NCBI GenBank assembly: GCA_937124965.1
Contig: CAKZLB010000013.1
Coordinates: forward strand, 299,154 to 363,153
Length of the DNA: 64,000 bases
Source of the DNA: an uncultured Bacteroidota bacterium
Lineage (GTDB): Bacteria > Bacteroidota > Bacteroidia > NS11-12g > UBA9320
Reading direction: 5' to 3'
Shown piece after piece: positions 14,159 through 44,447 of this stretch (the first letter of the stretch is position 1; every line of letters starts with the position of its first letter). The notes beneath the pieces were generated by a model, which was not told where the DNA came from, did no database searches, and worked only from the letters and a program-made list of their open reading frames with translations. Both the position numbers and the translations under genes were made by a program.

Positions 14159-14189
14159 TTAATAAAGACTTGAGCTCAGCGCTATAAAA

Positions 14190-15488: not shown

Positions 15489-16380
15489 ATATCACGTACC
15501 GGTTATGCTGTCTGAGTGTTTAGAAGGGTTGAACCTCAGATCAGACGGAACGTATGTTGACGTCACCTTTGGTGGCGGTGGTCACTCATACCCCATTTTG
15601 GATAAAATTCCTGATGGCAAGTTGATTGCATTTGACCAAGACAATGATGCACGTGAATTAGCCATTGATTACCCAAACCTCATTTTTGTCAATCATAATT
15701 TTCAATTTATCTCAAATTTTCTGAAATATTTTGAAGTTCCAAAAGTTGATGGACTTCTGGCTGATCTTGGTGTTTCGTCGCATCAGATCAATGAAGGTGA
15801 ACGAGGATTTTCCTTCCGATACGACGCTGACTTGGACATGAGAATGAATCAAGAGCAAGCACTAGATGCCTATGAAATTGTCAATACGTATTCGGCGGAA
15901 GAGCTCAGTAAACTCTTTAAAACCTATGGTGAAATCAGATACGCTTGGAAATTAGCCAACAAAATAGTCGCAGTGCGACAAGGCAAACCAATTGCCACTA
16001 CAGGTGATTTAGCAGCTATTGCTGAGGAGTTCACCATTCCAAAACAACGTAATAAAGAATTGGCTCAACTGTTTCAAGCACTTCGCATTGAAGTAAATGA
16101 CGAACTAGGTGTATTAAAATCTTTGTTAACAAAAAGCTTAGAATGCCTTGCGCCAGGCGGTCGACTTGTCGTAATGTCATACCACAGTTTAGAAGACAGA
16201 TTAGTCAAAACCTTCATGCAATCTGGAAATTTCGAGGGAAAGATCGAAACAGATGCATTCGGAAGATCTCTACAACCATTTAAACTAATTACTCGAAAAC
16301 CTATTACGGCTTCGGAGGAAGAATTAGTGAGTAACCCACGCTCTAGAAGTGCCAAACTAAGAATAGCAGAGAAGTTATGA
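15466..16380 (+). CDS. rsmH: 16S rRNA (cytosine1402-N4)-methyltransferase RsmH (MraW)
   Basis: 'HVPVML.E…YVD.TFGGGGHS', 'LADLGVSSHQ…RGFSF'. Overlaps mraZ by 23 nt. Confidence 0.9.
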   Translation: MTVETMSKYHVPVMLSECLEGLNLRSDGTYVDVTFGGGGHSYPILDKIPDGKLIAFDQDNDARELAIDYPNLIFVNHNFQFISNFLKYFEVPKVDGLLADLGVSSHQINEGERGFSFRYDADLDMRMNQEQALDAYEIVNTYSAEELSKLFKTYGEIRYAWKLANKIVAVRQGKPIATTGDLAAIAEEFTIPKQRNKELAQLFQALRIEVNDELGVLKSLLTKSLECLAPGGRLVVMSYHSLEDRLVKTFMQSGNFEGKIETDAFGRSLQPFKLITRKPITASEEELVSNPRSRSAKLRIAEKL

Positions 16381-16706
16381 GTACTCAAGAACCTATATCA
16401 AATAAAGAAAACTCCCGCATAGTCTGGGGCTTTGAGGTTTTGAAAGGAACTGAAATGCTCAAGCTAATCGTCTTTATTGGCATTTTGGCAATTCCATACG
16501 TGTACTACTCGCATGTTGCTGACAAAAAGCACCGTGAATCAGAAAAAGTCAAAAACGAGCTTAAGGAACTAAGAGCAGAATATATAACACTTAAATCCCA
16601 AATAGTCGGGCAAAACAAACAATCAGATGTTGCCAAAAGACTAAAAGACAAAGGATTAACTCCAATACAAGAAGCACCTATTGATTTGAATCAGGAACCA
16701 GATTGA
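16377..16706 (+). CDS. ftsL: Cell division protein FtsL-like
   Basis: 109 aa, one TM helix then a coiled-coil. Position between rsmH and ftsI. 4-nt overlaps on both sides. Confidence 0.6.
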   Translation: MSTQEPISNKENSRIVWGFEVLKGTEMLKLIVFIGILAIPYVYYSHVADKKHRESEKVKNELKELRAEYITLKSQIVGQNKQSDVAKRLKDKGLTPIQEAPIDLNQEPD

Positions 16707-18796
16707 ACGTTAAAAAAGACATATTGTGGCGTGTGATAGTCAGCATATTAATGCTTGTCTTTCTTAGTGTGGGCATTGTTTACCAAATCGTAAATGTGCA
16801 GTACGTTCAAGGAGAGCACTGGAATGCAGTAGACGATAGTTTGCACGTCAAATATCAAACAATACCCGCTGTTCGTGGAAGCATTTATTCGGAAGATGGG
16901 AGCCTCCTCGCAACAAGTGTCCCTATTTATAAAATCAGCTTAGACTTCGGTGTCATTCACGAGTTTCACAAAGATTCTTTTGGCAGCTATAAGAATATCC
17001 TCGCTACAAGACTTGCCAACACCTTACAAAATCGGACATCAGATGAGTATCTGACTGTTTTAGAAGAAGGTTATCGACTCCGAAAACGATATGTCACGAT
17101 TATTCGAAATGCAAGCTTTCTGCAGAGCAAAGAGATTATGAGTTGGCCAATTTTCAGTGCTGGCAGATACAAAGGTGGAATCGTATTAGAAGAAAAAAAC
17201 ATTCGTAAAAAACCGTATTACGAATTGATGGCCAGAACAATTGGCTATATCAATGAAAACCATAAAGGCGCTGGTATTGAAGCAAGTTTTGATGAAATAC
17301 TGACTGGTGCAGATGGCAAAATGGTCGTTCGTAAAGTTCCTGGAGGGTATCGCCCTTTAGAAAACGATATGAAAATAAGTGCGACAAACGGAAAAGACAT
17401 TTTCACTACGGTTGACATTGGCTTACAAGATTTAGTGAACGAAGAACTGAGTAAAGGAATCTTGGATAATGGCGCAGCCTATGGAACTGCTGTATTGCTC
17501 GAAGTCAAAACTGGAAAAATCAAGGCGATTGCCAATATCAACAATACGACTGATGGCTTAAGAGAATATTTCAACCACGCAATTGGCACTGGCTATGAGC
17601 CTGGAAGTACGATAAAACTAGTTTCTGCATTAGCTGCGCTTGAAAACAACGATGTTGAACTTGACGATTCAATTGATGTGCATTACGGCTCATACAAATT
17701 TTTTAAAAACGACAGCATTGAAGACAGTGGGCATACACGAGTTCGCAAGATGACCTATCAACAAGTGTTTGAAAACTCATCGAATGTCGGGATTTCCATC
17801 ACCGCATTTAAAGGGTTTAAGAAAGACCCAGTTGAGTTTATTAAATACTTCGAAGAACTGAAACTCACTGAGCCGTTGGAAACGGGTATTAAAGGTGAGG
17901 TTATTCCGTCTATACTTCGACCAACAAGACCTGGTTGGTCTGGAATGGCTGTGCCATCTATGTCTATCGGATACTCCGTCTCAATGAGCCCGTTGCACAT
18001 CGCTATGCTTTACAACGCGGTGGCGAACGATGGAGTTATGATGCGTCCATATTTAATAGCAGGGATTGGGTCTTTAGGACAATTGGACGAGCATTATGAA
18101 CCGCTTGTTTACAACAGTAAGATTTGCAAACAATCTACTCTTGATGATCTGCGTACAATGCTTGAGGGAGTTGTTCAAAACGGAACAGCCAAAGCATTAA
18201 AAGACCTTCCGTTTCGAGTTGCAGGGAAGACAGGAACATCAAGAATTTCAGATAATTCGGAAGGGTATACAAACGAATATCACTCAAGTTTTGCGGGCTA
18301 CTTTCCCGCCGACAATCCAAAATACACACTAGTTGTGATGATTAGTCGACCGTCTAAAGGACGCATCTATGGTTCACAAGTAGCACTACCTGTTTTCAAA
18401 GAAATCGCGTCTAAAATTTATGCAAACGCGGTTCATGCGCGAGTACCATATTCTGACACCACAGCACTTCCCAACGTGCTTGGAGGAAAATACAGCGATG
18501 TAAAAAAGGTATGTAAAAAACTAAATCTCGACTATGATGTAGACGCACGAAATCAAGAACTCGTAGTTCTAAAATCTGGTGAAGGCGAACTAGTAGGTAA
18601 GCGAATCGATTTTCAAAAAAACGTTATGCCTGATGTTAAAGGATTGGGATTGTCGAAATGCCTATTCCTCTTTGAAAACAAAGGATATAAAGTAAGACAG
18701 CGAGGCATTGGCAAAGTGGTTGAACAATCTCCATTGCCTGGAACCGTCCTTACGCCCGGGAGAACAATTTACCTCAGACTTAGTACCGATAAATGA
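16703..18796 (+). CDS. ftsI: Peptidoglycan D,D-transpeptidase FtsI (PBP) with C-terminal PASTA repeats
   Basis: Transpeptidase motifs 'STIK', 'SSN', 'KTGT'. Two PASTA-like modules in the last ~120 aa. Confidence 0.9.
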   Translation: MNVKKDILWRVIVSILMLVFLSVGIVYQIVNVQYVQGEHWNAVDDSLHVKYQTIPAVRGSIYSEDGSLLATSVPIYKISLDFGVIHEFHKDSFGSYKNILATRLANTLQNRTSDEYLTVLEEGYRLRKRYVTIIRNASFLQSKEIMSWPIFSAGRYKGGIVLEEKNIRKKPYYELMARTIGYINENHKGAGIEASFDEILTGADGKMVVRKVPGGYRPLENDMKISATNGKDIFTTVDIGLQDLVNEELSKGILDNGAAYGTAVLLEVKTGKIKAIANINNTTDGLREYFNHAIGTGYEPGSTIKLVSALAALENNDVELDDSIDVHYGSYKFFKNDSIEDSGHTRVRKMTYQQVFENSSNVGISITAFKGFKKDPVEFIKYFEELKLTEPLETGIKGEVIPSILRPTRPGWSGMAVPSMSIGYSVSMSPLHIAMLYNAVANDGVMMRPYLIAGIGSLGQLDEHYEPLVYNSKICKQSTLDDLRTMLEGVVQNGTAKALKDLPFRVAGKTGTSRISDNSEGYTNEYHSSFAGYFPADNPKYTLVVMISRPSKGRIYGSQVALPVFKEIASKIYANAVHARVPYSDTTALPNVLGGKYSDVKKVCKKLNLDYDVDARNQELVVLKSGEGELVGKRIDFQKNVMPDVKGLGLSKCLFLFENKGYKVRQRGIGKVVEQSPLPGTVLTPGRTIYLRLSTDK

Positions 18797-20253
18797 AGCA
18801 ATTGAATTCCATATTGCCTAACAATTTGTCTTTTTCAATAAAAGGAGATTCTGCTATTGACATAAATCATTTGCAATTGGATTCTCGTTTGGTTAAGCCA
18901 GGAGATTGTTTCATTGCGATTAGAGGAAGTATTACGGACGGTCATAAGTATATAGAAACGGCCATTTCAAACGGTGCTTCAGTAATAATCGCGGAAGAGG
19001 TTCCGGAAAACCCGCATGACAGCGTAACCTATGTAATTACAAAAAACACCACTTCATTCATTGGACCGCTCGCCTCAAACTATTACGACAACCCATCTAA
19101 AAACTTGAAGCTCGTTGGTGTTACCGGAACAAACGGGAAAACCACCGTTGCGACGTTGTTATATAAACTGTACAGAAAACTTGGAATTTCATGTGGTTTG
19201 CTCAGCACGGTCGAAAACAAAATTAACGATACCGTTTCACCTTCCACGCATACAACGCCAGACCCTATAACGCTCAACCACTTACTTAAAAAAATGGTGG
19301 ATGCAGGTTGCACTTACTGCTTTATGGAGGTGAGTTCACATGCCATTCATCAAGAGCGAATTGGAGGTTTGCGTTTTAAGCTCGCGGCCTTCACAAATAT
19401 TACTCATGATCATCTCGATTATCATGAAACTTTTGCCAACTATCGAGATGTAAAAAAATCACTTTTTGATCATTTAGATTCAGACGCGTTCGCCTTAACC
19501 AACAAAGACGATAAAAATGGTTTGGTTATGGTGCAGAACAGCAGTGCTACGCGATACACCTACGCGTTACATTCTTCTGCTGATTTCACGGCTCGAATAG
19601 TTGAGCACGATTTCAATGGGATGTTATTATCCATTGATAGAAAAGAAGCTTGGTATCATTTAGTTGGAAAATTTAATGCCTACAACCTACTCACCGTTTA
19701 TGCCACTGCGTTTATTCTCGGTCAGGAATCAGATACCATCATTACCGCTTTAACAAGTTTAACTGCAGTAAACGGCCGTTTTGAGTATATTCAATCAGAG
19801 AGTAAAATAATTGGCGTAATCGATTATGCGCACACTCCCGATGCCCTAGAGAACGTATTGCAAACGATAAATGCAGTTCGCTCTAAAAACGAACAACTGA
19901 TTACCGTAATCGGATGTGGTGGAAACAGAGATCACGACAAACGTCCAATTATGGCAAAAGTCTCAGCCGAGTTGAGCAACAAAGTCATCCTTACTTCAGA
20001 CAACCCACGAACGGAAAATCCAGAAGCAATCTTAGCCGATATGCAAACTGGCATTCCACCTCAACACTATAAAAAAGTACTAAAAATTACCGACCGAGAG
20101 CAAGCTATTCGAACCGCGATTAGTTTATCTAACCCAGGCGATATAATTCTAATTGCGGGCAAAGGTCATGAGACATATCAGGACATTAAAGGAGTAAAAC
20201 ACCCCTTTGACGATAAAGAAGTATTCATAAAAAACACCTCCCAAAACCTATAA
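18793..20253 (+). CDS. murE: UDP-MurNAc-L-Ala-D-Glu:meso-DAP ligase MurE
   Basis: P-loop 'GVTGTNGKTT'. 'DNPR' DAP-specificity motif present. Confidence 0.9.
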   Translation: MKQLNSILPNNLSFSIKGDSAIDINHLQLDSRLVKPGDCFIAIRGSITDGHKYIETAISNGASVIIAEEVPENPHDSVTYVITKNTTSFIGPLASNYYDNPSKNLKLVGVTGTNGKTTVATLLYKLYRKLGISCGLLSTVENKINDTVSPSTHTTPDPITLNHLLKKMVDAGCTYCFMEVSSHAIHQERIGGLRFKLAAFTNITHDHLDYHETFANYRDVKKSLFDHLDSDAFALTNKDDKNGLVMVQNSSATRYTYALHSSADFTARIVEHDFNGMLLSIDRKEAWYHLVGKFNAYNLLTVYATAFILGQESDTIITALTSLTAVNGRFEYIQSESKIIGVIDYAHTPDALENVLQTINAVRSKNEQLITVIGCGGNRDHDKRPIMAKVSAELSNKVILTSDNPRTENPEAILADMQTGIPPQHYKKVLKITDREQAIRTAISLSNPGDIILIAGKGHETYQDIKGVKHPFDDKEVFIKNTSQNL

Positions 20254-20256
20254 AGT

Positions 20257-21516
20257 ATGCTGTATTATTTATTTAGATATTTAGAACAACATTTTGCAAT
20301 TCCAGGGGCTGGTGTGTTTGAATTTAGCTCGTTTAGAGCCATCCTGGCCATAATTGTCTCATTAATGATTAGCCTGCTTTTTGGCAAGAAGTTAATAGAC
20401 ATGCTCCGTAAAAAGCAAGTTGGTGAGTCAATTCGCGACCTGGGACTTGAAGGGCAAATCGAGAAAAAAGGAACACCAACAATGGGTGGTTTAATCATTA
20501 TTGCCGCCATTTTAATCCCCACATTATTATTCGCTAGACTCAGGAATATTTACGTCATCCTGATGATTGTAACCACCGTATGGCTTGGGTTAATTGGATT
20601 CTTGGATGATTACATTAAGGTTTTCAAAAAAGATAAAGCTGGCTTAGCTGGTAAATTCAAAGTTGTGGGTCAACTCGGCTTAGGGTTAATCATCGGTCTC
20701 ACACTTTACTTTAACAAAGAAGTTGTTGTTCGTGAAACTGTTTCACAAAGCGAAGCCACTTCTACTCAAATTGAAGCCTCACATGAAAGCTATCAAAATG
20801 AGCTTGGTGAAACGATGTATGTCATAGATAATAAATCAACTATAACCACGATTCCATTTATAAAAAGTCATGAGTTTGACTATGCAGACTTACTTTTCTT
20901 TTTAAGTAATGCAAATGCTAAAAAGTACTCGTGGATTATCTACGTGTTTGTTGTCACGTTTATCATCATTGCGGTAAGTAATGGAGCCAACCTTACCGAC
21001 GGCATCGACGGATTGGCTGCTGGAACGAGTGCTATAATCGGTCTCACGTTAGCTGTGCTAGCGTTCATTTCTGGTAATGCCATATTCGCCAAATACCTGA
21101 ACATCATGTTTATTCCTTTTCAAGGGGAACTTGTAATTTTTGGTGCGGCTTTCGTCGGGGCATGTATCGGCTTTTTATGGTACAACTCCTACCCTGCTCA
21201 AGTTTTTATGGGCGATACTGGAAGTTTAGCACTAGGAGGAATAATCGCAGTTTTTGCCATTATGCTTCGTAAGGAATTATTGATTCCAATTTTATGCGGA
21301 ATCTTTTTGGCTGAAAATCTATCGGTTGTCATTCAAGTCAGCTATTTCAAATACACAAAAAAACGATATGGCGAAGGTCGACGCATATTCAAAATGTCGC
21401 CTTTACATCACCACTATCAAAAGTTAGGATACGCAGAACCCAAAATCGTTACGAGGTTTTGGATTGTCGGAATCATGCTAGCAGCGCTCACCATAATAAC
21501 CTTTAAGCTACGATAA
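20257..21516 (+). CDS. mraY: Phospho-N-acetylmuramoyl-pentapeptide transferase MraY
   Basis: '[13 protein letters not shown]', '[12 protein letters not shown]', 'SPLHHH'. Confidence 0.95.
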
Positions 21517-33198: not shown

Positions 33199-33627
33199 AT
33201 GAAGGACTACTATAAAATCTTGGGATTAACAAGTACGTGCACATTTTCCGATATCAGGAAAGCATATCGAACAAAAGCCTTGGAGCTGCATCCCGATGTT
33301 AATAATAGTAAAACGGCTAAAGCTGACTTTATAAATATTAATGAGGCGTACACTGTTTTAAAGAATCCGGTTAGACGAGCACAATACGACAACCTGCAAT
33401 TTCGTCCGCTTAATAAAACTAGGCCTTCGGACAGGAGAAACCAACGCAGATCTTCGCGGGTTTATCGCAGCGCAGAGCGTGGTAAACAAAATGGGAAAGA
33501 ACAGGGTGTAAATTCTAAGGATAAAGTCGAAAAGAAAAGCAACAGCATTTTTACTTGGTTTTTTGGAGATGTAATCATTGAATTGGCGTTGGAGGGTATA
33601 TTTTTTATTATACGGTTATTCTTATAA
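33199..33627 (+). CDS. J-domain (DnaJ N-terminal domain) protein with C-terminal TM helix
   Basis: 'DYYKILGL…IRKAYRTKALELHPDVN…INEAY.VL.NP.RRAQYD' with HPD tripeptide. Basic linker. Hydrophobic C-terminus. Confidence 0.7.
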   Translation: MKDYYKILGLTSTCTFSDIRKAYRTKALELHPDVNNSKTAKADFININEAYTVLKNPVRRAQYDNLQFRPLNKTRPSDRRNQRRSSRVYRSAERGKQNGKEQGVNSKDKVEKKSNSIFTWFFGDVIIELALEGIFFIIRLFL

Positions 33628-34548: not shown

Positions 34549-37500
34549 TTATTCACTCTTAAAAACGTAGCCTTTTTTAACTTTTTTACCAATCATTTTC
34601 TCTTTTTCTTCCAATGCCTTTTCATTCGTAGCAAACGGTTTTTCAGAGACCTGAGGTTTGTTTCCAATGCGTCCATAACGCACAATCACTGAAGATTCAG
34701 CAACTCCGATTTCCCAATATTTGTTACTCGTTCCTTCAACAAACTCATACCGTTCGAATGGAATATCGCCAGTTACCTCGTTCGACGGTTTACTCTCCAC
34801 TTCATCCAACGATGGTTCCGTTATTACTTCTTCTGTTTCTTCAACTTTTTCATCTTCAACAACGTAGATTTTTGTTTCCGCTTCATGAACTTCTTCATCA
34901 ACATCTTCGCCTGCCTCAAACAAATCATCGACATTGACAGCTTTCTCAAACACCGTTTTATTTTCGAGGATTTTCTTAAGTTTTTCAAGAACACGTTCCT
35001 TTTGTTCAAACCAATCTTTGTAAAGCACACGTGTTATCTTCCAACCAAAAGATTTTAAGATTTCTGGTCGCTGGCAATATTGTTCCAACACGTCATCGTT
35101 TGAATAATGATGTGCATGATCAATCAAAATCCCCAACTGGTATCGATCTTCACCATCTACCTTAATCGCTAAATCACACTTAAAATGGGATTGTCCTACT
35201 CCTACATCAGCGGCGTAACCCATTTTATCAAGCTCTTTTTTCAACTGCTGAACAATCAACTTGTTGTCTAAACTTTCAAGTTCTTCGGTCTGACTCATTG
35301 AGTCAAGAATCACATTTGCTTCTCCAATTCGCCCTTCAGATATTAGTCGAGCGTAACTTAAAAAGCGCTTGAAGTAGTTTGCTCCTTCGTTATAGTCGTT
35401 TTTGATATCTTGTGGTTGGATACTCGAAACAACTACCATGTTTCGTTTCGCTCTTGAGAAAATTACATTCAATCGTTTCTCTCCTCCCCTCCTATTTATT
35501 GGTCCAAAATTCATGTACATTTTTCCTGAATGATTGTAACCATAACAAACGCTCATGATAATGATATCACGCTCATCACCCTGCACATTTTCTAAATTCT
35601 TTACAAAAAGACCATTAAACTGGTCTTCATCCATTCGCTGGTATTCTTGTTCCAATCGTGCTTCAAAATCACGATCATCTGTACACAAACGTTGTAAAGC
35701 AGCCTCAATTTCAGACTGTTGTTCCATAGAAAATGCGACCACACCAATGCTTCTTCCATCCTTATGATTCAGCAGCTGCTGAACCATCTTTGCGATGTAA
35801 TTTGCTTCATCAACGTTTTTACGCTTTTCATAGGTTGCATTTTCCAAGTAATGATAGCTAATGCTTTTTGACAACATCTTATCAATATCAATGTCTTCAG
35901 AAATGTCCGTGACTGGAAGGGATTCTTCACTTTGCGATTGATGCATGACATTATCAGGAATCGTTAAAAGTCCTCGTTTGTAAAACGCAGCATTGCTAAA
36001 ACTAATTAAGCTTTCATGCCTGCTTCTATAATGCCAACCCAGCATCACCGACGATAGTTTTCGTCCACCTTGGTTCAGCAAGCTATCTGCATCAAGGCTT
36101 ATCCCGATATGTTCTTCGGTTTCACTTTCATCTTCATCGACGGTATTGCTTGAGCTAAAGAAATTCGTCGGCGGCATTTGCATTTCATCTCCAACAATGA
36201 TGGTTTGTTTGGTTCTAAAAAGCGATGGAACACCTTCTTCCACAGTAATCTGACTCGCTTCATCATAAATTACCACATCAAATAAATCAACGTCAATTGG
36301 CATGGTGTCACTCACACTGAGTGGACTCATCAGCCAAACCGGTTTTAAAGCAGTTAGCAATGAATTTGTTTCTTCACCCGCCAATTCACGAATCGACTTA
36401 TAGCGCATCGATTTACCGAATTCATTTTCTAATATTCGTCGAGCCGCAAGCCATAACTTCTTCTGTACTTTTTCCTCTTGCGTTAATTGAGCGGCGACAG
36501 ATTCGGTAACGCGAATCATGTCGGAAAACTCATCTCGAATTTTCGCCCGAATGTGTTCAACGTTACTCTCGTAATATTTGTCAAGCAATGCATTTATTCT
36601 TCGAATACTTATTTCCAAACTGTCGTCTTCGACCCTTGCAAAATTTGCTTGAGTTTCATAAATATCTTTGAGCGATTTATAAGCAAAATTGAATTCAAAG
36701 TCAGCCAAGTCCCAAGGCATTTGATACAAACAATGCTTTAGCTCTGGACTTACATTTTTTGCTTTTTCGATAAATGGCATCATTGCCGATAACGAACTAA
36801 CAACTGGTTTACTTTTTTGCAATTTCTCGTCTAAATTTTCAACTTTTAAATTTCGCACATCACCATAAAGCTGTTCGACATTTTCATATAGCTCTTGAAA
36901 CATGGCAGCTTGGCCATTCAACGCATTGATCTCTTCTAATGCATTCTCTCTAACCCAATGACCAAGTGTTTTTGTTGGATGCAATTGCATCTCTTCAATC
37001 CATTTCGTCTCATCATCCCAGGCCTCCAATCCGAAACTTGACATCGTTTGAGTTCTAAGTCGCTCAATCTGATCTTTACAAGTGTACTCATCATTCAGGT
37101 TTGTGAGCAGTTTTTCAAAATCTGGTTTAATCTTGTGCGCTTCAAGATTGTACGATTCTGCAATTTGTCCTTTTAGTTTATAAAAGGCGGGATTTACAAA
37201 ACGTAAAATGGAGCTATTCAGTTTCTTCCATTGAATAAGGGCTTGCTCAGCGTCGTCTTTGCCCCACTTCTGTTTCCAGTTACTGTTCGATTTTTCGAGA
37301 CTGGCTTTTTCTTGCAACAAAGACTGTATTGATTTTTTAGCTTCGTATAAATCAGCCGCCTCATTCGAACCTCTTGAAAACACTTGGAGTTTTCCCTTAT
37401 TGACTATCGTTCCTAAGCGCTCTGCTAATTGAAACCTTTCCTTCCAAAGACTCAATTTCATCTTTTCAGGATCATCAATATCGAAATCATCTAACTGTTC

Positions 37501-40029
37501 TAGCCAATTATCTAATATCGTTACAGACTTTTCAATTTTGTCTAAAACGACTTGTTTTGGATTTGACGATTCAATGATTGAAGTTTCGAGCTGAGCAAAT
37601 GGGTACTGCGAAATTGCTTTTTCTAATCCTGCAGTTTTCAATTGTTCAATCCAGTCAGTTATCCACTCTCGCTCCGATTTCCATTCCGAATATAAAGCAA
37701 ATTGAACGATAGCCGTTTCAGACGGATAGACACGATGTGCATTGAATCTATGCAATACTTCGAATAGCTCAATTGGCGGCACTTCGCCAGATTTCATTTG
37801 TTTATGAAAAAATGCCAATTTCTCTGTTTCCGCTTCGATTGCATCTACTACAAACTTCCTGTTTCTTTCTATTTCATTTAGGTCTAGTGTATTCGAAATG
37901 AAGCTTTCATACGTTTCTTTGAGGTTCAGGATGAATGATTTTTTATCCGCCTGAGAATCGTGTATCAAACAGCACAATTCGTCTAGTTTCCGATTTTTCA
38001 ATCTATGGAATACAACGTCCAATGCAGCACGTTTTTCACAAACAAACAAAATCTTTTTGCCTCGTGAAATGTAGTCTGCAATTAGATTTGTAATTGTCTG
38101 TGACTTACCTGTACCAGGAGGTCCCTGAATGATATAACTTTGTCCAGTTCTCGCTAACTCTATTGCTTTTGTTTGGGTTGGATCCGCAGAAATAATTGGA
38201 AAATTTGTCGCTAAATCTGAGTTGCTTTCTGTATCGTTTAGAACACGCTGTGGCAACTCACTAAATAGTTGGTCGAATATTTCATCAGACGTTTTAGAAT
38301 CAATTATCTCATTGTAATCACGCACCAAGCTCATCTTACGATAGTTAAAATTACCAATTGTGATGTTGCATGTATCTACTTCCCAAACCAATGGATTTAC
38401 GTCGCCTTCATTGTCTGTGGTATAAAACGTTCTAGCCTTTTCTTGAACCGCATTATTTGTTGGACTTAAACTGTCATTGATAATGTATTCTAGCGCACTG
38501 TTTTTGTAGCGAATTCGCTCTTTAAAAATTTGTAACCCTAACGGAATGAAATCGTCGTTTGAATAGGAATAATGGAAATTACGTACGTTTAGCGCAGCTG
38601 CTTTTTTGGTTAATTTGTGTGTTCGTAGATTAAAGTTCTTTTTAGCTATGGTATGTATTAGTTTAATCTTTGGCTTTTGACGCCATTCTATAGAAATTCC
38701 AGAACCATCTGATGCAATTTGTTGCTGAATAGTATTCACCAAATCCTCAACATCACTTGTTTCCAAGTCAATAAAACTTGGCAAATCGATATCATACAAA
38801 TCCTTGAGATAATTACTTAAAATCGGATTTATCTCAGCTTCCGTGCTATCAAATCCAATAATAAATTGATCTCGAACTCCTTTTTTCTTTGTTACTGTAG
38901 CTGGCAGTAATAAAAGCGGTGACGTAATTTTCTCTGTATTATCTTCCTTAAAATTATACCAATGTAGGAACGCAACAACCACCCGCAATTGACTAAAACC
39001 ATACTCATTCTGACTTCGTCGAGCATCCAACCGAATTTTGTTTAAGGTTGGAGCGATGATTTTATTTTGCCCGATTTCGACGAAGTTATTGACGATGATC
39101 TTTTTGGACTTAATCACCTTTTTTCGGATATTATCGTTCCAAAATATCAAGTCTTTTTCACGAATATTTTCGTGATCTAACAATAGCGGAACGGATGATA
39201 TCGTGAGGTTTAAGAAGTTTTGTTGTTCTCTAAAATATAACAACTTATTCCGTCTACTAATATCAAATAGCCGATTCTTAAGCTTTGCTAGTATCCATTG
39301 ATTACGCGTTGATGTTTCTTGATTTCGAAATCCTTCTGTTTCTGTTAAATCAACATAATTTTCAGGATTATACTCCCGATAGTTGTTCAGTTTGGTAATT
39401 GCCTCTTCCAAATTCGACAAACGATCTTCTCGGTATACCTGCGTCATTTCATAAATGACATTGTGTGCCGTTGGGTGAAGCGATTGATTAAGAAAAAACA
39501 GCCGTTTCCGATTTTCAACAAAAGCCTCCAAGTCATCTTTCTCTCGAAAATCTAATTGATACGCCACACTTGCGAGTATCATCCCGAGGTTAAAAATATC
39601 CGTGATTGGATCGTAATGACCCAAGGCGTACTCCCATGATTTGTAATTTGGAAGGTATGACGCTTGAGACGGCGAAGTATTCTCATCCATGTGAATGAGA
39701 TTGGTTGAGTACTCAGAGCTTTGAGTATCGACATCCAGTTTCTCTGTATACCCTTGATCAACCTCTATACTTGACTTTTGATTCGGCTTTACAAATAATG
39801 GACGCGTTGCATACTGAATAGTTTTAGCAGGACCTGAAACACTCAACCGATTATCGATGTATTCAATTTGTTGAATGTGGGTAATCATTGCAACCTGATT
39901 ATTCTCGTGTAGGTATTTAACCTTTTCAAGAAGCGGAAGCGTATAGGCGATAAAATCAGGTGTTTTAAGCTGACCGAAATCCTTAATTCTATCGATAAGG
40001 TGAAATATGTTTTGTGAGGTATTTTCCAT
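34549..40029 (-). CDS. Giant (1826 aa) multidomain protein: N-terminal kinase-like C-lobe signature region, DUF4011, Upf1-like SF1 helicase core, Vsr/DUF559-like endonuclease fold, acidic linker, C-terminal WGR domain
   Basis: DUF4011-like 'NKLLYFR…YGFSQLRVVVAFLHWYN…SPLLLLPATV'. Walker A 'IIQGPPGTGKSQT' (aa 633-645). Motif II 'DEASQ' (1256-60). Motif III 'VGDEMQMPP'. Motif IV 'GWHYRSRHESL'. Motif V 'VQGDERDIIIMS'. Motif VI 'EKRLNVIFSRAKRNMVVV'. Endonuclease-like 'FKCDLAIKVDGEDRYQLGILIDHAHHYS'. WGR 'YWEIGVAESSVIVRYGRIGNKPQVSEKPF…A…KVKKGY' (aa ~1755-1826; nt 34552-34767). Confidence 0.85.
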   Translation of the reverse strand: MENTSQNIFHLIDRIKDFGQLKTPDFIAYTLPLLEKVKYLHENNQVAMITHIQQIEYIDNRLSVSGPAKTIQYATRPLFVKPNQKSSIEVDQGYTEKLDVDTQSSEYSTNLIHMDENTSPSQASYLPNYKSWEYALGHYDPITDIFNLGMILASVAYQLDFREKDDLEAFVENRKRLFFLNQSLHPTAHNVIYEMTQVYREDRLSNLEEAITKLNNYREYNPENYVDLTETEGFRNQETSTRNQWILAKLKNRLFDISRRNKLLYFREQQNFLNLTISSVPLLLDHENIREKDLIFWNDNIRKKVIKSKKIIVNNFVEIGQNKIIAPTLNKIRLDARRSQNEYGFSQLRVVVAFLHWYNFKEDNTEKITSPLLLLPATVTKKKGVRDQFIIGFDSTEAEINPILSNYLKDLYDIDLPSFIDLETSDVEDLVNTIQQQIASDGSGISIEWRQKPKIKLIHTIAKKNFNLRTHKLTKKAAALNVRNFHYSYSNDDFIPLGLQIFKERIRYKNSALEYIINDSLSPTNNAVQEKARTFYTTDNEGDVNPLVWEVDTCNITIGNFNYRKMSLVRDYNEIIDSKTSDEIFDQLFSELPQRVLNDTESNSDLATNFPIISADPTQTKAIELARTGQSYIIQGPPGTGKSQTITNLIADYISRGKKILFVCEKRAALDVVFHRLKNRKLDELCCLIHDSQADKKSFILNLKETYESFISNTLDLNEIERNRKFVVDAIEAETEKLAFFHKQMKSGEVPPIELFEVLHRFNAHRVYPSETAIVQFALYSEWKSEREWITDWIEQLKTAGLEKAISQYPFAQLETSIIESSNPKQVVLDKIEKSVTILDNWLEQLDDFDIDDPEKMKLSLWKERFQLAERLGTIVNKGKLQVFSRGSNEAADLYEAKKSIQSLLQEKASLEKSNSNWKQKWGKDDAEQALIQWKKLNSSILRFVNPAFYKLKGQIAESYNLEAHKIKPDFEKLLTNLNDEYTCKDQIERLRTQTMSSFGLEAWDDETKWIEEMQLHPTKTLGHWVRENALEEINALNGQAAMFQELYENVEQLYGDVRNLKVENLDEKLQKSKPVVSSLSAMMPFIEKAKNVSPELKHCLYQMPWDLADFEFNFAYKSLKDIYETQANFARVEDDSLEISIRRINALLDKYYESNVEHIRAKIRDEFSDMIRVTESVAAQLTQEEKVQKKLWLAARRILENEFGKSMRYKSIRELAGEETNSLLTALKPVWLMSPLSVSDTMPIDVDLFDVVIYDEASQITVEEGVPSLFRTKQTIIVGDEMQMPPTNFFSSSNTVDEDESETEEHIGISLDADSLLNQGGRKLSSVMLGWHYRSRHESLISFSNAAFYKRGLLTIPDNVMHQSQSEESLPVTDISEDIDIDKMLSKSISYHYLENATYEKRKNVDEANYIAKMVQQLLNHKDGRSIGVVAFSMEQQSEIEAALQRLCTDDRDFEARLEQEYQRMDEDQFNGLFVKNLENVQGDERDIIIMSVCYGYNHSGKMYMNFGPINRRGGEKRLNVIFSRAKRNMVVVSSIQPQDIKNDYNEGANYFKRFLSYARLISEGRIGEANVILDSMSQTEELESLDNKLIVQQLKKELDKMGYAADVGVGQSHFKCDLAIKVDGEDRYQLGILIDHAHHYSNDDVLEQYCQRPEILKSFGWKITRVLYKDWFEQKERVLEKLKKILENKTVFEKAVNVDDLFEAGEDVDEEVHEAETKIYVVEDEKVEETEEVITEPSLDEVESKPSNEVTGDIPFERYEFVEGTSNKYWEIGVAESSVIVRYGRIGNKPQVSEKPFATNEKALEEKEKMIGKKVKKGYVFKSE

Positions 40030-40035
40030 GGTCGA

Positions 40036-41283
40036 TTAATCTTGGAATATGCTGTCTTCTCGTGATTCGTTTTGCTTTTGCAAGTCTGCCATTGCACTAT
40101 CCAGAAGCGCTTTAAAGTCGCGAACGGTTAGTTTCATTTCTTTTCTGATAATTTTTTCATAGATATCCTTAATGCCAATCACCTCCGCTAATTCGGAAGT
40201 ATACGCAAGCGGCATGTTCTCAAGCTCTCTATCAACCTTCGAAAAGTCTAACAGTACGTAACAGAGATAGGACTTGACCGACTCCTTAGAAGACTCAATA
40301 TTTTTGGCAAAGTCTTCAATTTTGACATCGTCTTTTGTTCGTACAAAATCCTGAAAATACTGATCACACAGATTCAACACCGTAGACGTTGCCATCCATT
40401 TTGGCTTGACGATTAATTGGAGGAGGTTTTTCGTTACCTCTTGCATTTCAGTTTGCTTAAAGATGTCAAGCTTGTCAATGTCTAAAGAGCCTTCAATCAA
40501 TTTTTGAACGTGTTCGAAATAATCCTTATCGTTTTCCGATTGCATGAGAAGTGCAATACTTCTGATATATGACTCAGGGTGCGTGTCGTTGACTGTTCCT
40601 TCATCAACATTCGATAGTATTTCCTTTGCTTGGTTTAAATAGCTTTCCGCGTTGACTTCTGACAACCCTGTATCAAGTTTTACCAACATTTGTATTACCG
40701 TTTTATGGTCTTTTGAAACGAGTAAAGATCCAGCATCACAAAAGAGTTCCATGTATAGCTGATAAATTCGAGCAGTTTGGATAATGGCATTTTCACTACG
40801 ATTATCGTTTGCCAATGAAACTACTAATCGATTCGTAATTTCAAACTCTTCGTTGTCTGTTTTGTAAAATAAATAATGACTAAGCTCGTGCGCTAATAGG
40901 CATTTCATTTCCTCATCGTTCAATAGGTTTAAAACAGACCCTGAGAACACAATATGTGCTTCCTTATCAAGAATTGAAATTCCGGCGTTTAACTGTGTAC
41001 TATTATTCTCTTGATAGAGAATTACGTTTGCATCTATCGCCAGCACCTTGCAGCATTCATCAGCCAAGAGGTATAGTTTTTCATGACTTGATCTGTCGAG
41101 TCGGTAGGTATTTTTTAAAAGCGTTTTTTTGTATTCATCTATCTGTTGCTCCTTCGTCGCTTTAAGTGCAAACCAATCCCACGTTTTCTTTTGCTGTTTA
41201 AAATGATCTCGCAATTTTATGTGATACTGAAACGGAGTGAGGTTTAAACTGGGTGAACTCGACTCTGTGGTTTGATTTTCCAT
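40036..41283 (-). CDS. Soluble HExxH zinc-metallopeptidase-like protein (M48-like core) with uncharacterised alpha-helical C-terminal half
   Basis: 'NVILYQENNSTQLNAGISILDKEAHIVFSGSVLNLLNDEEMKCLLAHELSHYLFY' parallels the M48/HtpX 'NAFa.G…i.l..gLl..l...El.aVlaHElgH' block. Downstream Glu in 'ELFCD'. No TM segments. Stop is 6 nt before the helicase ATG. The track starts at TTG 41289; ATG 41283 is preferred. Confidence 0.6.
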   Translation of the reverse strand: MENQTTESSSPSLNLTPFQYHIKLRDHFKQQKKTWDWFALKATKEQQIDEYKKTLLKNTYRLDRSSHEKLYLLADECCKVLAIDANVILYQENNSTQLNAGISILDKEAHIVFSGSVLNLLNDEEMKCLLAHELSHYLFYKTDNEEFEITNRLVVSLANDNRSENAIIQTARIYQLYMELFCDAGSLLVSKDHKTVIQMLVKLDTGLSEVNAESYLNQAKEILSNVDEGTVNDTHPESYIRSIALLMQSENDKDYFEHVQKLIEGSLDIDKLDIFKQTEMQEVTKNLLQLIVKPKWMATSTVLNLCDQYFQDFVRTKDDVKIEDFAKNIESSKESVKSYLCYVLLDFSKVDRELENMPLAYTSELAEVIGIKDIYEKIIRKEMKLTVRDFKALLDSAMADLQKQNESREDSIFQD

Positions 41284-41558
41284 AGACAAAATTAAGGTGC
41301 TAAATTATGGAAAAGTGCGAAGACTGTCAGATATTTAGCGAAGAATGTGGATGTGATTTCACGTTCTAAGCTTAAAAATTAATCACCTTTTCTAAACGGG
41401 CACAACCATGTTATTTAGAAAGAATAATTAATGTGAGTCAGGCTTTATTTATTACCCTCTTTCATTCATAACAAATCACCTGTTTGTGCCCAGGGAAAGG
41501 ACAATGCGTCAAGTTGGAGTTTTTTTTCTAGAAAACATAGTTCTTAAATTAGCTTAAT

Positions 41559-42551
41559 GTGAATGTAAAAAATAATATTTGTGGCTTAATAATAACAAAT
41601 ATGAACCAATCAAAAATCTTACTTACTTTCTCCTTTTTAATACTTGTCTCAATTTGGAGTTGTAAAGATGACACAGTTTTACCGACAAAATCTGCCAATG
41701 AATTAATAGTCGTAACTGGCATGGATCCTATAATTAACGAAAACCCAAGCAATAAGCAATTGCTGACAACAATCACTGGTACCTCTGCGTTAGGTGATGT
41801 TGTTATGAGTTTAGAAATGGAGTCTGTTACAGGAAGTCTGGACTTTAATCCTGAAAATGGTGAAGTGCGAGTAAAAAATAGAAGTCTTTTTGATTTTGAA
41901 AAAAATCAGTTTATCACCTTTAAAATCAAGGGAACAGTTGGTGAAGAATGGAATGAAGGAACATTTAAGATTACCTTAAAAGATGTAGAAGAATTGCCTT
42001 CTGTGCAAAACTTGCTAGATGAGGGTAAACATCCTTGGGAAATAATGAAAAGTAACTCTAAGTATACTATTGATTCACTGATTAATAAACGCTATGGAGG
42101 TGGGTACATTTTTCGTGTGGATGATTTTGATTTTGAAACTTGGATTGTTGCTAAAGAAGATATAGGATCTGCACCATGGGGTTGCAAGGGCACTCTAATT
42201 AGTTATACAAGTGATGCAATACATAAGAGTGCAGAAAACACGAAAACCATTCTTGCTGAATGCAATGAACCGAGTATTGCCGCTAGAAAATCTGATGCAT
42301 ATTCTATCGATGGTTATGACGACTGGTATTTGCCTTCTGAAGGTGAGATGAGAACTGTATTTTTTATATTGAAGAAAGAAACATTAGACAAAATGGAAAT
42401 TGCAATAGGTAGCAAGTATTGGACTTCAACACAAGAAAACAAAGACGATGCAATTTACATTGGTTACATATCAGAGGGACGAGGGACGTCATACACGGGA
42501 AGCAAAGACATCCTTTATAAAGTTCGACCTTGTAGAAAAGTTACGCAGTAG
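41559..42551 (+). CDS. DUF1566 (Lcl C-terminal domain)-containing lipoprotein
   Basis: Signal peptide plus lipobox 'SIWSCKDD'. C-terminal 'DGYDDWYLPSEGEMRTVF…KYWTST' matches the DUF1566 'DWRLPT..EL..L' signature. Confidence 0.5.
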   Translation: MNVKNNICGLIITNMNQSKILLTFSFLILVSIWSCKDDTVLPTKSANELIVVTGMDPIINENPSNKQLLTTITGTSALGDVVMSLEMESVTGSLDFNPENGEVRVKNRSLFDFEKNQFITFKIKGTVGEEWNEGTFKITLKDVEELPSVQNLLDEGKHPWEIMKSNSKYTIDSLINKRYGGGYIFRVDDFDFETWIVAKEDIGSAPWGCKGTLISYTSDAIHKSAENTKTILAECNEPSIAARKSDAYSIDGYDDWYLPSEGEMRTVFFILKKETLDKMEIAIGSKYWTSTQENKDDAIYIGYISEGRGTSYTGSKDILYKVRPCRKVTQ

Positions 42552-43565: not shown

Positions 43566-43823
43566 TCAGTCGTAATGAAATCTACACTTCGCAATTAATA
43601 TTTCGTCCTCATTGTATTGGTAGATTAATCTGTGTTCGCTATCTATTCGTCTTGACCAAAACCCAGCATATTTATGCTTTAAAGGCTCAGGTTTTCCAAT
43701 TCCATCAAATGGGTTTCGACCAATCTCTTTCAGAAGATCATTTATTTTTTTAAGCTTTTTTTTATCCGTTTTTTGCCAATACAAATAATCTTCCCAGGAC
43801 TCGTCAACGAATATATACTTCAT
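43566..43823 (-). CDS. yoeB: YoeB/Txe-family toxin (RelE fold)
   Basis: 'SWEDYLYWQ…D.K…KIN.LLKEI.R.PF.G.GKPEPLK…G.WSRRID.EHRLIY' colinear with YoeB. Confidence 0.85.
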   Translation of the reverse strand: MKYIFVDESWEDYLYWQKTDKKKLKKINDLLKEIGRNPFDGIGKPEPLKHKYAGFWSRRIDSEHRLIYQYNEDEILIAKCRFHYD

Positions 43824-43830
43824 CTTAACT

Positions 43831-44079
43831 TTAAATTAAGTCTTTGTCAAAAGACTCACCGCTTTTAAGTTTGTCAATAGCGGAATCTAATCTTAATTCA
43901 TTTTTTCGAGAAGATAATTCGTGATTTGTAGCCATCAATGAATTGTATTCTTGCAATGACATAACTACAATTCCAGAATCTTTTCCGCGATTTATTATCA
44001 ACGTTTCAACGTTTTTTACAACTAGGTCTAAGTAAGCTTTAATATCTTTCCTAAAAGCAGAAACAGTAGTTATTTGCAT
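43831..44079 (-). CDS. yefM: YefM/Phd-family antitoxin
   Basis: 'MQITTVSAFRKDIKAYLDLV…ETLIINRGKDSGIVVMSLQEYNSLM' Phd/YefM fold. Immediately upstream of yoeB. Start taken at the internal ATG (44079), not the track's 44115. Confidence 0.8.
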   Translation of the reverse strand: MQITTVSAFRKDIKAYLDLVVKNVETLIINRGKDSGIVVMSLQEYNSLMATNHELSSRKNELRLDSAIDKLKSGESFDKDLI

Positions 44080-44447
44080 AATTTTGTATTTTATTAAGTA
44101 CAAATATAAGTACAAAATTTAGATTACTTGATTTCTTCTGTGTAGCTGACAACGACTCAATAGCGTCCTAAACTTTTTTTTAGTAATGCTAGTGACGCCA
44201 GTTAATTCAGGTGAGTAGGATTTTTGAAGGACTTTGGGGTTTAATGTTCATAATACATTTGGTTTGGAGGTCGATGGCATTTTTGGAGATGGAGTGTCAG
44301 TGAAGTTTTTTTTGGTAAAATCCAAGGGAAGTCGAGAACTTGTTCGAGAATCACTCGCAGGATTCCAATAAAAACAAACGGAAACGAACAACGCCAAAGG
44401 AGCCTTGAACTTTTTGTTTACTTTTTGGTTCAAGACAAAAAGTAAAA

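Follow-up and report, generated by a model that had tools for sequence, protein, structure and literature searches.

A predicted M48-type zinc peptidase gene coupled to a gene for an Hhe/ProA-class helicase-nuclease protein in an uncultured Bacteroidota bacterium

Results

Organisation of the locus

The two genes described here lie on the minus strand of contig CAKZLB010000013.1 (assembly GCA_937124965.1) of an uncultured Bacteroidota bacterium, within a stretch of 64,000 nucleotides which was analysed as a whole and is referred to as the window (Table 1). As had been observed in an earlier note made from the sequence, they are 6 nt apart (34549..40029 and 40036..41289), and the spacer, which is in frame, reads as translational coupling of the peptidase and helicase genes. 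The partner of the helicase had been given as a protein of 417 aa; this open reading frame (ORF) is real if the TTG at 41289 used by the ORF finder is taken as the start, but counted from the in-frame ATG at 41283 the protein has 415 aa, as have both the database protein (P0001) and the product of the gene call on the source contig. Scans for promoters and terminators gave counts no higher than those expected from shuffling, and the TAATTTTG motif found 3 nt upstream of the partner ATG occurs at chance level, with 63 matches in the window against 83 expected.

Table 1. Coordinates of the gene pair and its features within the window
Feature	Position	Strand	Remarks
Large gene, 1826 aa	34549..40029	-	ATG start; pseudokinase lobe, DUF4011, SF1B helicase, Vsr-like nuclease and WGR
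Protein-kinase C-lobe-like N-terminal domain, aa 1-235	39325..40029	-	No N-lobe; HRD and DFG not conserved
DUF4011 domain, aa 253-408	38806..39273	-	Pfam 55.2 bits; ProA homology begins here
Upf1-like SF1B helicase, aa 616-1536	35422..38184	-	Pfam, motifs and PDB sequence matches
Walker A of helicase	38095-38124	-	
DEASQ of helicase	36250-36264	-	
Vsr/DUF559-like REase_MTES_1575 nuclease, aa 1594-1686	34972..35250	-	Pfam 60.1 bits
C-terminal WGR domain, aa 1764-1822	34564..34740	-	Pfam 50.3 bits (threshold 22)
In-frame 6-nt spacer, partner stop codon to helicase start	40030..40035	-	
Partner gene, soluble acidic M48-type zinc peptidase (predicted), 415 aa	40036..41283	-	ATG start at 41283
M48/gluzincin catalytic domain of partner, ~aa 59-250	40534..41109	-	
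HELSH zinc-binding/catalytic motif, H132, E133, H136	40876..40890	-	Conservation across 106 sequences
MELFCD motif, E179 as inferred third zinc ligand	40735..40752	-	E179, C182 and D183 invariant in 106 sequences
Helical C-terminal domain of partner, aa 251-415	40039..40533	-	Confident structure model

The M48-type partner

The partner is a predicted M48-type zinc endopeptidase with an intact active site. Its description in the earlier note as a soluble, M48-like HExxH protein was borne out: it has the M48 catalytic-domain fold, transmembrane segments are absent from both it and the large protein, and it carries neither a signal peptide nor a membrane anchor. Across 106 sequences there is no variation at E133, H136, E179, C182 or D183, and conservation of H132 is at least 90%; both the HExxH zinc site and the downstream Glu ligand expected of M48 are thus present. 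The E-x-x-C-D arrangement around the latter resembles the “ExxAD” motif of M48 enzymes, of which we take it to be the equivalent. A profile search also placed the protein in the M48 peptidase family, albeit marginally (PF01435, 23.4 bits against a threshold of 20.3, with 45 aa covered); the Ralstonia ortholog scores 36.6 bits against the same model. The family is large, falling into at least 370 clusters when grouped at 50% identity, and no member exceeds 547 aa; the protein is acidic in all of 45 sequences (pI 4.9-5.9). A structure search with the C-terminal helical domain gave no convincing match. The partner matched neither the PADLOC models nor the anti-phage models of NCBIfam, where only weak HtpX and SprT matches were found.

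Membership of the SprT/DPC-protease family was considered and rejected on the grounds of motif and fold. The SprT-like Pfam match of the window peptidase is marginal (27.3 bits, threshold 25.6), the Ralstonia ortholog falls below that threshold with 21.0 bits, and Foldseek returned a weak match to SPRTN (6mdw, probability 0.57). The SprT motif is HExxHx5H; the partner reads HELSHYLFYKT, with no conserved His at the third position, and its structural neighbours are M48 and not SprT proteins.

The helicase-nuclease protein

The domains which the earlier note had recognised in the large protein were all recovered, with DUF4011, AAA_11 (616-763), AAA_12 (1324-1536), REase_MTES_1575 and WGR each exceeding the Pfam gathering threshold. 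The SF1 helicase motifs I, II, III, V and VI are all present and almost invariant across the family, the window copy reading GPPGTGKSQT (636-645), DEASQ (1256-1260), GDEMQMPP (1280-1287), QGDERD (1483-1488) and GGEKRLNV (1515-1522), and an insertion of ~560 aa separates the two RecA-like lobes. The best PDB sequence matches of the helicase are IGHMBP2, Sen1 and Upf1. The nuclease, of the Vsr/DUF559 type, a DNA endonuclease fold, keeps D1619, D1637 and H1641 in the window copy; within the family D1637 is retained in 38/38 sequences, H1641 in 31/38 and D1619 in 25/38. The WGR domain is basic (pI 9.2), is carried on an acidic linker of ~60 aa and matches the WGR protein of PDB entry 2ra8, and is missing from some family members (e.g., L035 and P0199). 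In PARPs, WGR is the domain which senses DNA breaks, and DNA breaks are its documented ligands. At the other end of the protein, and newly recognised here, the first ~220 residues fold like the C-lobe of a protein kinase without the catalytic motifs: the bilobal fold of eukaryotic-type protein kinases (ePK) with its ATP-binding N-lobe is absent, and neither HRD nor DFG is conserved.

Nhi and Mokosh had been named in the earlier note as described defence systems with Upf1-like helicases. ProA, PDC-S37 and Hhe (E values of ~1e-200 for the first two and ~1e-100 for the last) are closer and had been missed. Among the PADLOC models the large protein matched PDC-S37 at 3.6e-202 (PDLC05009, which has no curated cut-off; profile positions 218-1371 of 1550), Hhe at 1.9e-99, MkoA at 1.7e-36 and MkoC at 7.7e-22; the corresponding NCBIfam values were 7e-203 for anti-phage ProA and 3e-133 for Hhe. 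No Nhi model was among the matches at E <= 0.1 in PADLOC, which may not include one. An hhalign alignment to bona fide ProA spans residues 254-1699. ProA, PDC-S37 and Hhe are the closest known relatives, making the large protein a new branch of a described class. Against the ProA model (NF058533) it scored 677 bits for a cut-off of 1500, matching profile positions 576-1739 of 1903, whereas the positive controls from a Bacteroides finegoldii plasmid and Acinetobacter pGFJ1 reached 2197 and 1772 bits respectively; against the Hhe model (NF042953) it scored 446 bits for a cut-off of 2000, with the best match confined to residues 1196-1728. As both scores are far below the cut-offs, function cannot simply be transferred from these proteins.

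Co-inheritance and distribution

In each of the 43 GTDB loci with downstream DNA, the peptidase gene is followed on its own strand by the helicase gene, and the order is the same in the eight Beta- and Gammaproteobacterial genera examined (Ralstonia, Burkholderia, Luteimonas, Bordetella, Cupriavidus, Paraburkholderia, Pseudoduganella and Pseudoxanthomonas); the pair is conserved in at least two bacterial phyla. Stop-to-start spacing falls between -11 and +10 nt in 44/45 loci. All-against-all clustering of the flanking ORFs found only two gene clusters common to all loci, those of the peptidase and the helicase, with no third conserved gene; DUF4132 occurs downstream of the pair in two loci only. 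The pairwise-identity matrices of the two proteins are correlated at r = 0.977, a value reached in none of 1000 Mantel permutations, and in the loci examined the helicase of this branch was never seen without the peptidase. The peptidase and the helicase-nuclease are an obligate, co-inherited unit. Domain-wise partial mirror-tree correlations, calculated in search of a docking domain for the peptidase, lay between -0.03 and 0.50 and followed the rate of evolution, and are therefore uninformative on this point. A Rosetta-stone fusion was looked for and not found: the ProA N-termini examined contain no peptidase domain, and members of the peptidase family reach at most 547 aa. In four loci (L006, L017, L025 and L037) the helicase ORF is truncated beside an intact peptidase, and these truncations may be assembly errors.

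A peptidase-based scan, by which the proteobacterial branch was missed, found the pair in at least 47 of 185,579 GTDB species. Its distribution is patchy. Variable presence between close strains, which the earlier note had proposed to look for, is seen in Ralstonia: 136 Ralstonia records match the query and 12-14 megaplasmids carry the pair, most of the sampled records carry the flanking uvrA alone, and strain CFBP2957 has only a 126-nt remnant, the pair having been lost in close Ralstonia strains. For the lineage of the window, an exact-protein look-up matched the source contig alone. No phage-borne copies were found in IMG/VR, and no consistent LexA box lies upstream of the pair in four proteobacterial loci.

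Genomic neighbourhood

The patch of accessory genes in which the pair had been placed stands in part. YoeB/YefM genes (43566-44115) adjoin it as claimed, while the DUF1566/Lcl_C match (41559-42551) is real but sub-threshold. One flank has ftsA/ftsZ/pth/rbfA and the opposite one a sorbosone dehydrogenase, in keeping with the earlier description of the surroundings. None of ten neighbours in the window (0/10) matched a PADLOC model, and the composition of the pair is not anomalous within the window. The 105 nearest neighbours from 29 loci carry 142 heterogeneous Pfam families, mostly housekeeping; compared with PADLOC they yielded three apparently system-specific families, once each, the remainder being apparently generic ATPase or helicase similarity. 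A clear defence island was seen in one of 12 annotated contexts, a small sample with no formal background statistic, and no enrichment of defence genes was found in either set. Mobile-element genes were absent beside the pair in the contexts read.

Contexts vary from genus to genus. Five of the eight proteobacterial contexts consist solely of housekeeping or metabolic genes, and in Luteimonas the pair lies inside a type I R-M/Mrr/HipAB island. Repair genes adjoin the pair in several lineages, namely an Lhr helicase and an ATP-dependent DNA ligase in Nonlabens, RecQ in Marivirga, a long UvrA paralog in Ralstonia and DNA polymerase II in Burkholderia; in a Flavobacteriales metagenome-assembled genome the neighbours are RtcB/RlaP. 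Within genera the pair looks vertically inherited, judging from the synteny in Nonlabens.

Discussion

The pair is a new variant within the Hhe/ProA class, one made up of two genes, and most likely a protease-coupled DNA-surveillance module. In the form which we tentatively favour, the products of the translationally coupled operon would act as a single cytoplasmic complex in surveillance against invading DNA (phage or plasmid), with the peptidase as a switch or a second effector. The large subunit would be a DNA motor-nuclease of the Hhe/ProA/PDC-S37 type, in which the Upf1-like SF1B helicase travels along nucleic acid and the Vsr-like nuclease cleaves, whilst the basic WGR domain on its flexible acidic tether may sense a DNA end, a nick or another aberrant structure, and DUF4011 and the catalytically dead kinase C-lobe could serve as regulatory or docking modules. 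Because the peptidase is acidic and shows no evident surface for DNA binding, access to its substrate would be solely via the large subunit; the enzyme may either cleave an inhibitory part of that subunit and so license the nuclease, or degrade proteins which the motor meets on the target DNA. We infer the complex, the DNA substrate, the defence role and the target of the peptidase, the complex and the peptidase substrate purely so.

A defence role is suggested by the homology of the core to ProA, PDC-S37 and Hhe, by the patchy and strain-variable presence of the pair, by the Luteimonas defence island and by YefM-YoeB in the window. Against it count the lack of enriched defence neighbours, the native composition, the vertical look of the inheritance, the neighbouring repair genes, the ProA and Hhe scores below cut-off, and the substitution of D1619 in 13/38 and of H1641 in 7/38 relatives; DUF4011 proteins, moreover, can be core genes, as in Pseudomonas aeruginosa. 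The earlier note had reasoned that a place in a syntenic core with housekeeping neighbours would speak against defence. The surroundings are indeed housekeeping in most genomes, yet there is no syntenic core across genera, and the defence role therefore rests mainly on homology.

A role in DNA repair is a serious rival to the defence reading, possible if rather unlikely in our estimation. The pair would then be a genome-maintenance module repairing endogenous lesions such as DNA-protein crosslinks and protein-capped or blocked ends: WGR would locate the break or end, the helicase unwind, the M48 peptidase strip the protein and the Vsr-like nuclease trim. Repair genes beside the pair in independent lineages (with the Flavobacteriales genome counted among them), the mostly housekeeping contexts, the native composition and seemingly vertical inheritance, the break-sensing role of WGR in PARPs and the weak SprT-like and SPRTN similarities are all consistent with this. 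However, the neighbouring repair gene changes with the lineage, so that none is a conserved partner, and the four proteobacterial loci lack a consistent LexA box; the peptidase is acidic throughout and M48-type rather than SprT-type, as seen from the missing third His and the sub-threshold Ralstonia ortholog; the sole characterised relatives are anti-phage proteins; and the patchy distribution, with losses in close Ralstonia strains, also argues against it. It is improbable that the pair is a non-immune protease-coupled DNA-processing machine, a prokaryotic functional analogue, built from unrelated parts, of SPRTN plus a helicase in the repair of DNA-protein crosslinks, in which the WGR tail would dock on a break or protein-capped DNA end and the SF1B motor unwind, after which the M48 peptidase, brought by the pseudokinase lobe, would digest the protein bound there covalently or tightly and the Vsr-like nuclease would then trim the DNA.

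We give little credence to a toxin-antitoxin-like or addiction arrangement, in which a toxic helicase-nuclease would be held in check by the peptidase, an antidote which would either sequester it or cleave it continuously, so that the nuclease would be freed once the peptidase was lost; such an arrangement could also run within a defence role as abortive infection. The small upstream gene, large downstream effector and tight coupling are reminiscent of type II toxin-antitoxin and Abi operons, and the strict co-occurrence of the two genes and the truncated helicase ORFs beside intact peptidases would fit, although the latter may reflect assembly errors. An enzyme of 415 aa with an invariant active site is, however, untypical of an antitoxin, an autoregulatory DNA-binding domain is absent, and single, unpartnered genes for the related ProA and Hhe are tolerated. 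Very unlikely, finally, is an RNA-directed function, in which the helicase would work on RNA, as do Upf1 of eukaryotes and MkoA of Mokosh, in the surveillance of RNA or in a defence that targets it, with WGR binding RNA and the peptidase acting on ribonucleoprotein: the nearest solved helicases have RNA, or both RNA and DNA, as substrates, MkoA is similar and RtcB/RlaP adjoin one locus, but the fused nuclease has a DNA endonuclease fold, the WGR ligands are DNA breaks and the closest relatives of full architecture have been described as defence proteins of the helicase-nuclease kind.

Genes for Hhe/ProA-type fusions of a helicase with a nuclease are recognised as anti-phage, and what is new in this branch compared with the single-gene forms is the obligate zinc peptidase with its intact site, the dead kinase lobe and the WGR break-sensor domain. 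Should the peptidase license or complement the nuclease, the two genes would constitute a two-component system, with control of a DNA-degrading motor by a separately encoded metallopeptidase; we know of no described defence system with that property. If the role is instead in repair, a protease-assisted route of DNA repair in bacteria would be indicated. Since the family also occurs in culturable and genetically workable bacteria, among them Ralstonia solanacearum, Burkholderia, Cupriavidus and Nonlabens, its function is directly testable.

Comparison with known systems

The earlier view that the pairing is a new one holds, in that the partner has no PADLOC match and no description of an M48 peptidase paired with a DUF4011 protein was found in the literature searched, which does not imply its absence elsewhere. 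That literature also contained no descriptive paper on ProA or PDC-S37 and no description of the mechanism of Hhe/ProA-type fusions. The Hhe, ProA and PDC-S37 architecture, with DUF4011, an SF1 helicase and a Vsr-like/MTES_1575 nuclease on one polypeptide, is present here; their single-gene character is not, a partner being found in every locus examined. ProA (NF058533) and PDC-S37 share with the large protein a core of DUF4011, an Upf1-like SF1 helicase with a long insertion and REase_MTES_1575. ProA, however, has its own N-terminal region of ~380-410 aa before DUF4011, which does not align to the kinase-like lobe of the window protein, and its C-termini differ also: that of B. finegoldii carries DUF3320 where the window family has WGR, that of Acinetobacter ends shortly past the nuclease with DUF3320 not detected, and Pfam found WGR but no DUF3320 in the window protein. 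The bona fide ProA loci of the B. finegoldii plasmid and pGFJ1 have no M48 neighbour and sit among toxin-antitoxin genes and beside CRISPR-Cas, whereas the window family is mostly not so placed. Hhe (HheA), in which one gene encodes both the helicase and the nuclease domain and which has been studied experimentally and restricts phages, has the same core architecture, but it works alone whereas the window family always has the peptidase gene, and in Halomonas its locus lies 1 kb from a Gabija system, a kind of context in which the window family is mostly not found.

Mokosh and Nhi are more distant relatives of the window protein than ProA and Hhe. Similarity to MkoA and MkoC is confined to the Upf1-like/COG1112 helicase lobes, and neither the two-gene form of Mokosh (MkoA with the PLD nuclease MkoB) nor the fused MkoC was recognised here, no PLD-nuclease partner being conserved near the pair. 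Hachiman (HamAB), a two-gene helicase-nuclease complex which senses DNA integrity, resembles the pair in layout, in that a helicase serves as the sensor and a nuclease as the effector. Homology is limited to generic helicase folds, and the partner of the Hachiman helicase is the nuclease; in the present pair the nuclease belongs to the helicase protein itself, and a peptidase takes the partner's place. Compared with the M48 enzymes (HtpX, Ste24/ZMPSTE24, BepA and Oma1) and the soluble “minigluzincins” (selecase, proabylysin and projannalysin), the partner, with M48 sequence similarity limited to ~50 residues, is cytoplasmic and soluble, has an extra C-terminal helical domain of ~165 aa and is genetically linked to a helicase-nuclease. 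With SprT, Wss1 or SPRTN and a helicase, the pair shares the idea of a zinc protease cooperating with a DNA helicase.

The gene pair as a conserved unit

The earlier note had placed two minus-strand genes 6 nt apart, which the ORF table confirms, a statistically trivial point. The partner ORF has an in-frame ATG at 41283, two codons into the TTG-initiated frame, and the resulting 415-aa product is both an exact database protein and the gene as called on the source contig; the ATG of the large gene follows 6 nt from the partner stop, in frame, and GC over the pair (0.36-0.39) is the same as that of its surroundings. The source contig is metagenomic and 552 kb long (ENA ERZ928060); in gene content and nearest relatives it resembles Flavobacteriales. 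Same-frame junctions, spaced by 0, 3 or 6 nt, also occur in L021, L023, L025-L027, L034, L036, L042 and L046 (retrieved homologous loci), and since stop and start share a frame, stop-codon read-through would yield a fusion protein; no fused peptidase-helicase protein was seen in databases. The sequence TAATTTTG, which fits the Bacteroidota -7 promoter consensus TAnnTTTG, lies close enough to the partner ATG that a leaderless or very short-leader mRNA would be implied; its frequency in the window was not above chance.

A pattern scan with the partner alignment, using one genome per GTDB species, returned 47 loci from 185,579 species, a lower bound because the scan missed the proteobacterial branch. 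In all 43 loci with downstream DNA (the other four stop at a contig edge) the peptidase gene is followed on the same strand by a large-protein homologue that is full-length and 39-57% identical. Ralstonia solanacearum megaplasmids carry full-length homologues at approximately 35% identity, the genes annotated "M48 family metalloprotease" and "WGR domain-containing protein" overlapping by 4 nt. A search seeded by the Ralstonia peptidase gave 449 relatives across Beta- and Gammaproteobacteria, and each of seven more genera checked (Burkholderia, Luteimonas, Bordetella, Cupriavidus, Paraburkholderia, Pseudoduganella and Pseudoxanthomonas) had the pair with its 4-nt overlap. Conservation of the pair across genomes, proposed earlier as a check, was thus borne out by the GTDB loci and the proteobacterial genera alike.

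Stop-to-start spacing falls between -11 and +10 nt in all but one of 45 loci and, when all flanking ORFs were clustered, only the peptidase and helicase genes were common to every locus, the next cluster being present in 10. For the two proteins, the matrices of pairwise identities have a correlation of r = 0.977, a value equalled by none of 1000 Mantel permutations. An exhaustive profile search (E <= 1e-30) gave at least 370 peptidase clusters at 50% identity; among the 150 listed, nearly all were about 400 aa and none was fused to a helicase. The few family members without WGR still have the partner (e.g., locus L035). The gene pair is a real, widespread unit, and both enzymes are intact, co-translated and co-evolving.

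Features of the pair, its homologues and their neighbours (nt positions within the window or retrieved locus, unless marked aa)
Feature	Location	Position	Strand	Remarks
Large gene	Window	34549..40029	-	1826 aa, ATG start
Partner ORF	Window	40036..41289	-	417 aa from TTG
DUF4011	Large protein	aa 253-408		Pfam, above gathering threshold
AAA_11	Large protein	aa 616-763		Pfam, above gathering threshold
AAA_12	Large protein	aa 1324-1536		Pfam, above gathering threshold
REase_MTES_1575 (Vsr/DUF559-like)	Large protein	aa 1594-1686		Pfam, above gathering threshold
WGR	Large protein	aa 1764-1822		Pfam, above gathering threshold
Same-frame partner stop/helicase start	Window	40030-40038	-
TAATTTTG motif	Window	41287-41294	-	3 nt 5' of partner ATG
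YefM-YoeB	Window	43566-44115	-	2.3 kb from operon
DnaJ-domain gene	Window	33199-33627	+	142 aa; convergent, just 3' of large gene
HipA_2-family gene	Source contig (L048)	1-219		About 10 kb from operon
Lhr + ATP-dependent ligase	Nonlabens (L053)	17391-21239		Adjoins pair
Long UvrA paralog	Ralstonia (L049)	11711-17457		Adjoins pair
DNA polymerase II	Burkholderia (L057)	18258-20624		Adjoins pair
RecQ	Marivirga (L052)	1794-3698		Adjoins pair
RlaP/RtcB	Flavobacteriales MAG (L054)	18282-21236		Adjoins pair
375-aa protein, faint DnaJ match	Burkholderia (L057)	16870-17997	-	Convergent, just 3' of large gene
DUF4132 protein	Marivirga lumbricoides (L004/L052)	16706-19957		Directly downstream, same strand as pair
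DUF4132 protein	Arenicella-labelled MAG (L010)	12731-16108		Directly downstream, same strand as pair
Large-gene remnant, 126 nt	R. solanacearum CFBP2957 megaplasmid (L051)	11891-12016		Upstream of uvrA; 82% identical to large-gene 3' end
"Reverse transcriptase family protein"	Bacteroides finegoldii plasmid (L055)	10100-11230		Convergent, 1 nt from bona fide ProA gene

The two proteins

The predicted architecture of the large protein (DUF4011, Upf1-like SF1 helicase, Vsr/DUF559-like nuclease and WGR) was recovered as five Pfam domains. The SF1 motifs GPPGTGKSQT, DEASQ, GDEMQMPP, QGDERD and GGEKRLNV are essentially invariant in a 63-sequence family alignment. Among solved helicases, IGHMBP2, Sen1 and Upf1 come closest in sequence; the PDB copy searched contained no structure resembling Hhe or ProA. 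Within the nuclease D1637 is invariant (38/38), with H1641 in 31 and D1619 in 25 of the 38, and the window copy retains all three. The WGR domain is basic (pI 9.2), and an acidic linker about 60 aa long connects it to the rest of the protein. The large subunit combines the components of a DNA-tracking nuclease with a break-sensor-type domain. In L006, L017, L025 and L037 the large ORF is short (734-1621 aa), although tblastn homology runs on, and all four loci have an intact peptidase; these are possibly frameshifts, pseudogenes or assembly errors.

That the partner is a soluble HExxH peptidase with M48 likeness is upheld by its conserved zinc-site residues and the absence of any hydrophobic segment. 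Its Pfam matches, Peptidase_M48 and SprT-like, are both marginal and limited to the HExxH helix; the Ralstonia ortholog scores 36.6 bits for M48, with SprT-like under threshold. Across 106 homologues there is no variation at E133, H136, E179, C182, D183, H235 or P236, and at least 90% keep H132. We take E179-L-F-C-D183 to be the equivalent of the M48 "ExxAD" third-ligand motif, and the third histidine of SprT/SPRTN is absent from the partner sequence. All 45 orthologues examined are acidic. Two proteobacterial homologues from JGI (P0303 and P0313) bear the product name "plasmid stability protein".

Genomic context and possible role

Several signs point to an accessory or defence nature: the low number of GTDB species carrying the pair, surroundings that vary from genus to genus, a Luteimonas copy inside an island of type I R-M, Mrr, Fic and HipAB, and the YefM-YoeB toxin-antitoxin pair in the window. 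A HipA_2-family gene also lies on the source contig. The accessory-gene patch proposed earlier holds as regards YefM-YoeB, but none of ten window neighbours matched PADLOC. Variable presence between close strains, a further suggested check, was seen in Ralstonia: 12 megaplasmids retain the complete 17-kb region, most sampled records among the 136 matching the query have the neighbouring uvrA alone, and in CFBP2957 (97% identical flank), a strain without the pair, a deletion scar is left in the form of 126 nt from the 3' end of the large gene.

On the other side, the 105 nearest neighbours (29 loci) match 142 heterogeneous Pfam families, mostly housekeeping, with only single PADLOC matches that look system-specific; five proteobacterial contexts are wholly housekeeping or metabolic, the locus is syntenic within Nonlabens, and P. 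aeruginosa core genes include a DUF4011 protein. Upstream of the pair no consistent LexA box was found in four proteobacterial loci, and viral contigs in IMG/VR carried no copies. The defence label is plausible, but this context calls for caution.

We tentatively favour anti-mobile-element surveillance as the biological role, with slightly less than even confidence. DNA or RNA repair genes adjoin the pair in five lineages, a different gene in each, which speaks against defence. A role in DNA repair is the main rival, at clearly lower confidence than surveillance. A toxin-antitoxin-like arrangement is improbable, and an RNA-directed function more improbable still. In mechanistic terms, peptidase and large protein would form a complex in which the large subunit brings the acidic peptidase to its substrate, possibly via its family-specific pseudokinase lobe; proteolysis would then license the nuclease, or else strip proteins from the target nucleic acid.

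The domain most commonly fused to WGR is DUF4132 (MolR type); the DUF4132 proteins next to the pair, of 1083-1125 aa, may therefore form a third part of the system in one subclade. The DnaJ neighbour shared by the window and Burkholderia may be a coincidence.

Relation to known defence systems

In PADLOC the large protein matched PDC-S37 (3.6e-202), Hhe (1.9e-99) and MkoA of Mokosh (1.7e-36), and the partner gave no match; NCBIfam scored the large protein at 677 bits for "anti-phage protein ProA" (cut-off 1500) and 446 bits for Hhe (cut-off 2000), and the partner gave weak HtpX and SprT model matches and nothing else. Nhi and Mokosh, the reference relatives named in the earlier note, are more distant than ProA, PDC-S37 and Hhe. 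The pairing itself does appear new: no description of the two genes as a pair was found in the literature searched.

Two plasmid proteins served as ProA controls, from B. finegoldii (2197 bits) and Acinetobacter (1772 bits). Unlike the window pair, neither gene has a peptidase neighbour; both proteins lack WGR and any Pfam-detectable N-terminal domain, and that of B. finegoldii has DUF3320. A ProA-like gene of Salinibacter that falls just short of the threshold (1404 of the required 1500 bits) adjoins a type I-E CRISPR-Cas locus. Profile alignment limits homology with ProA to residues 254-1699 of the window-protein family, and Hhe is a single-gene helicase-nuclease defence in the literature. 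The large protein belongs to an already known class; given its sub-cut-off scores, the partial homology and the single-gene nature of ProA and Hhe, it is a member of neither named family and instead makes up a third branch within the Hhe/ProA superfamily, one whose termini and obligate partner are both new.
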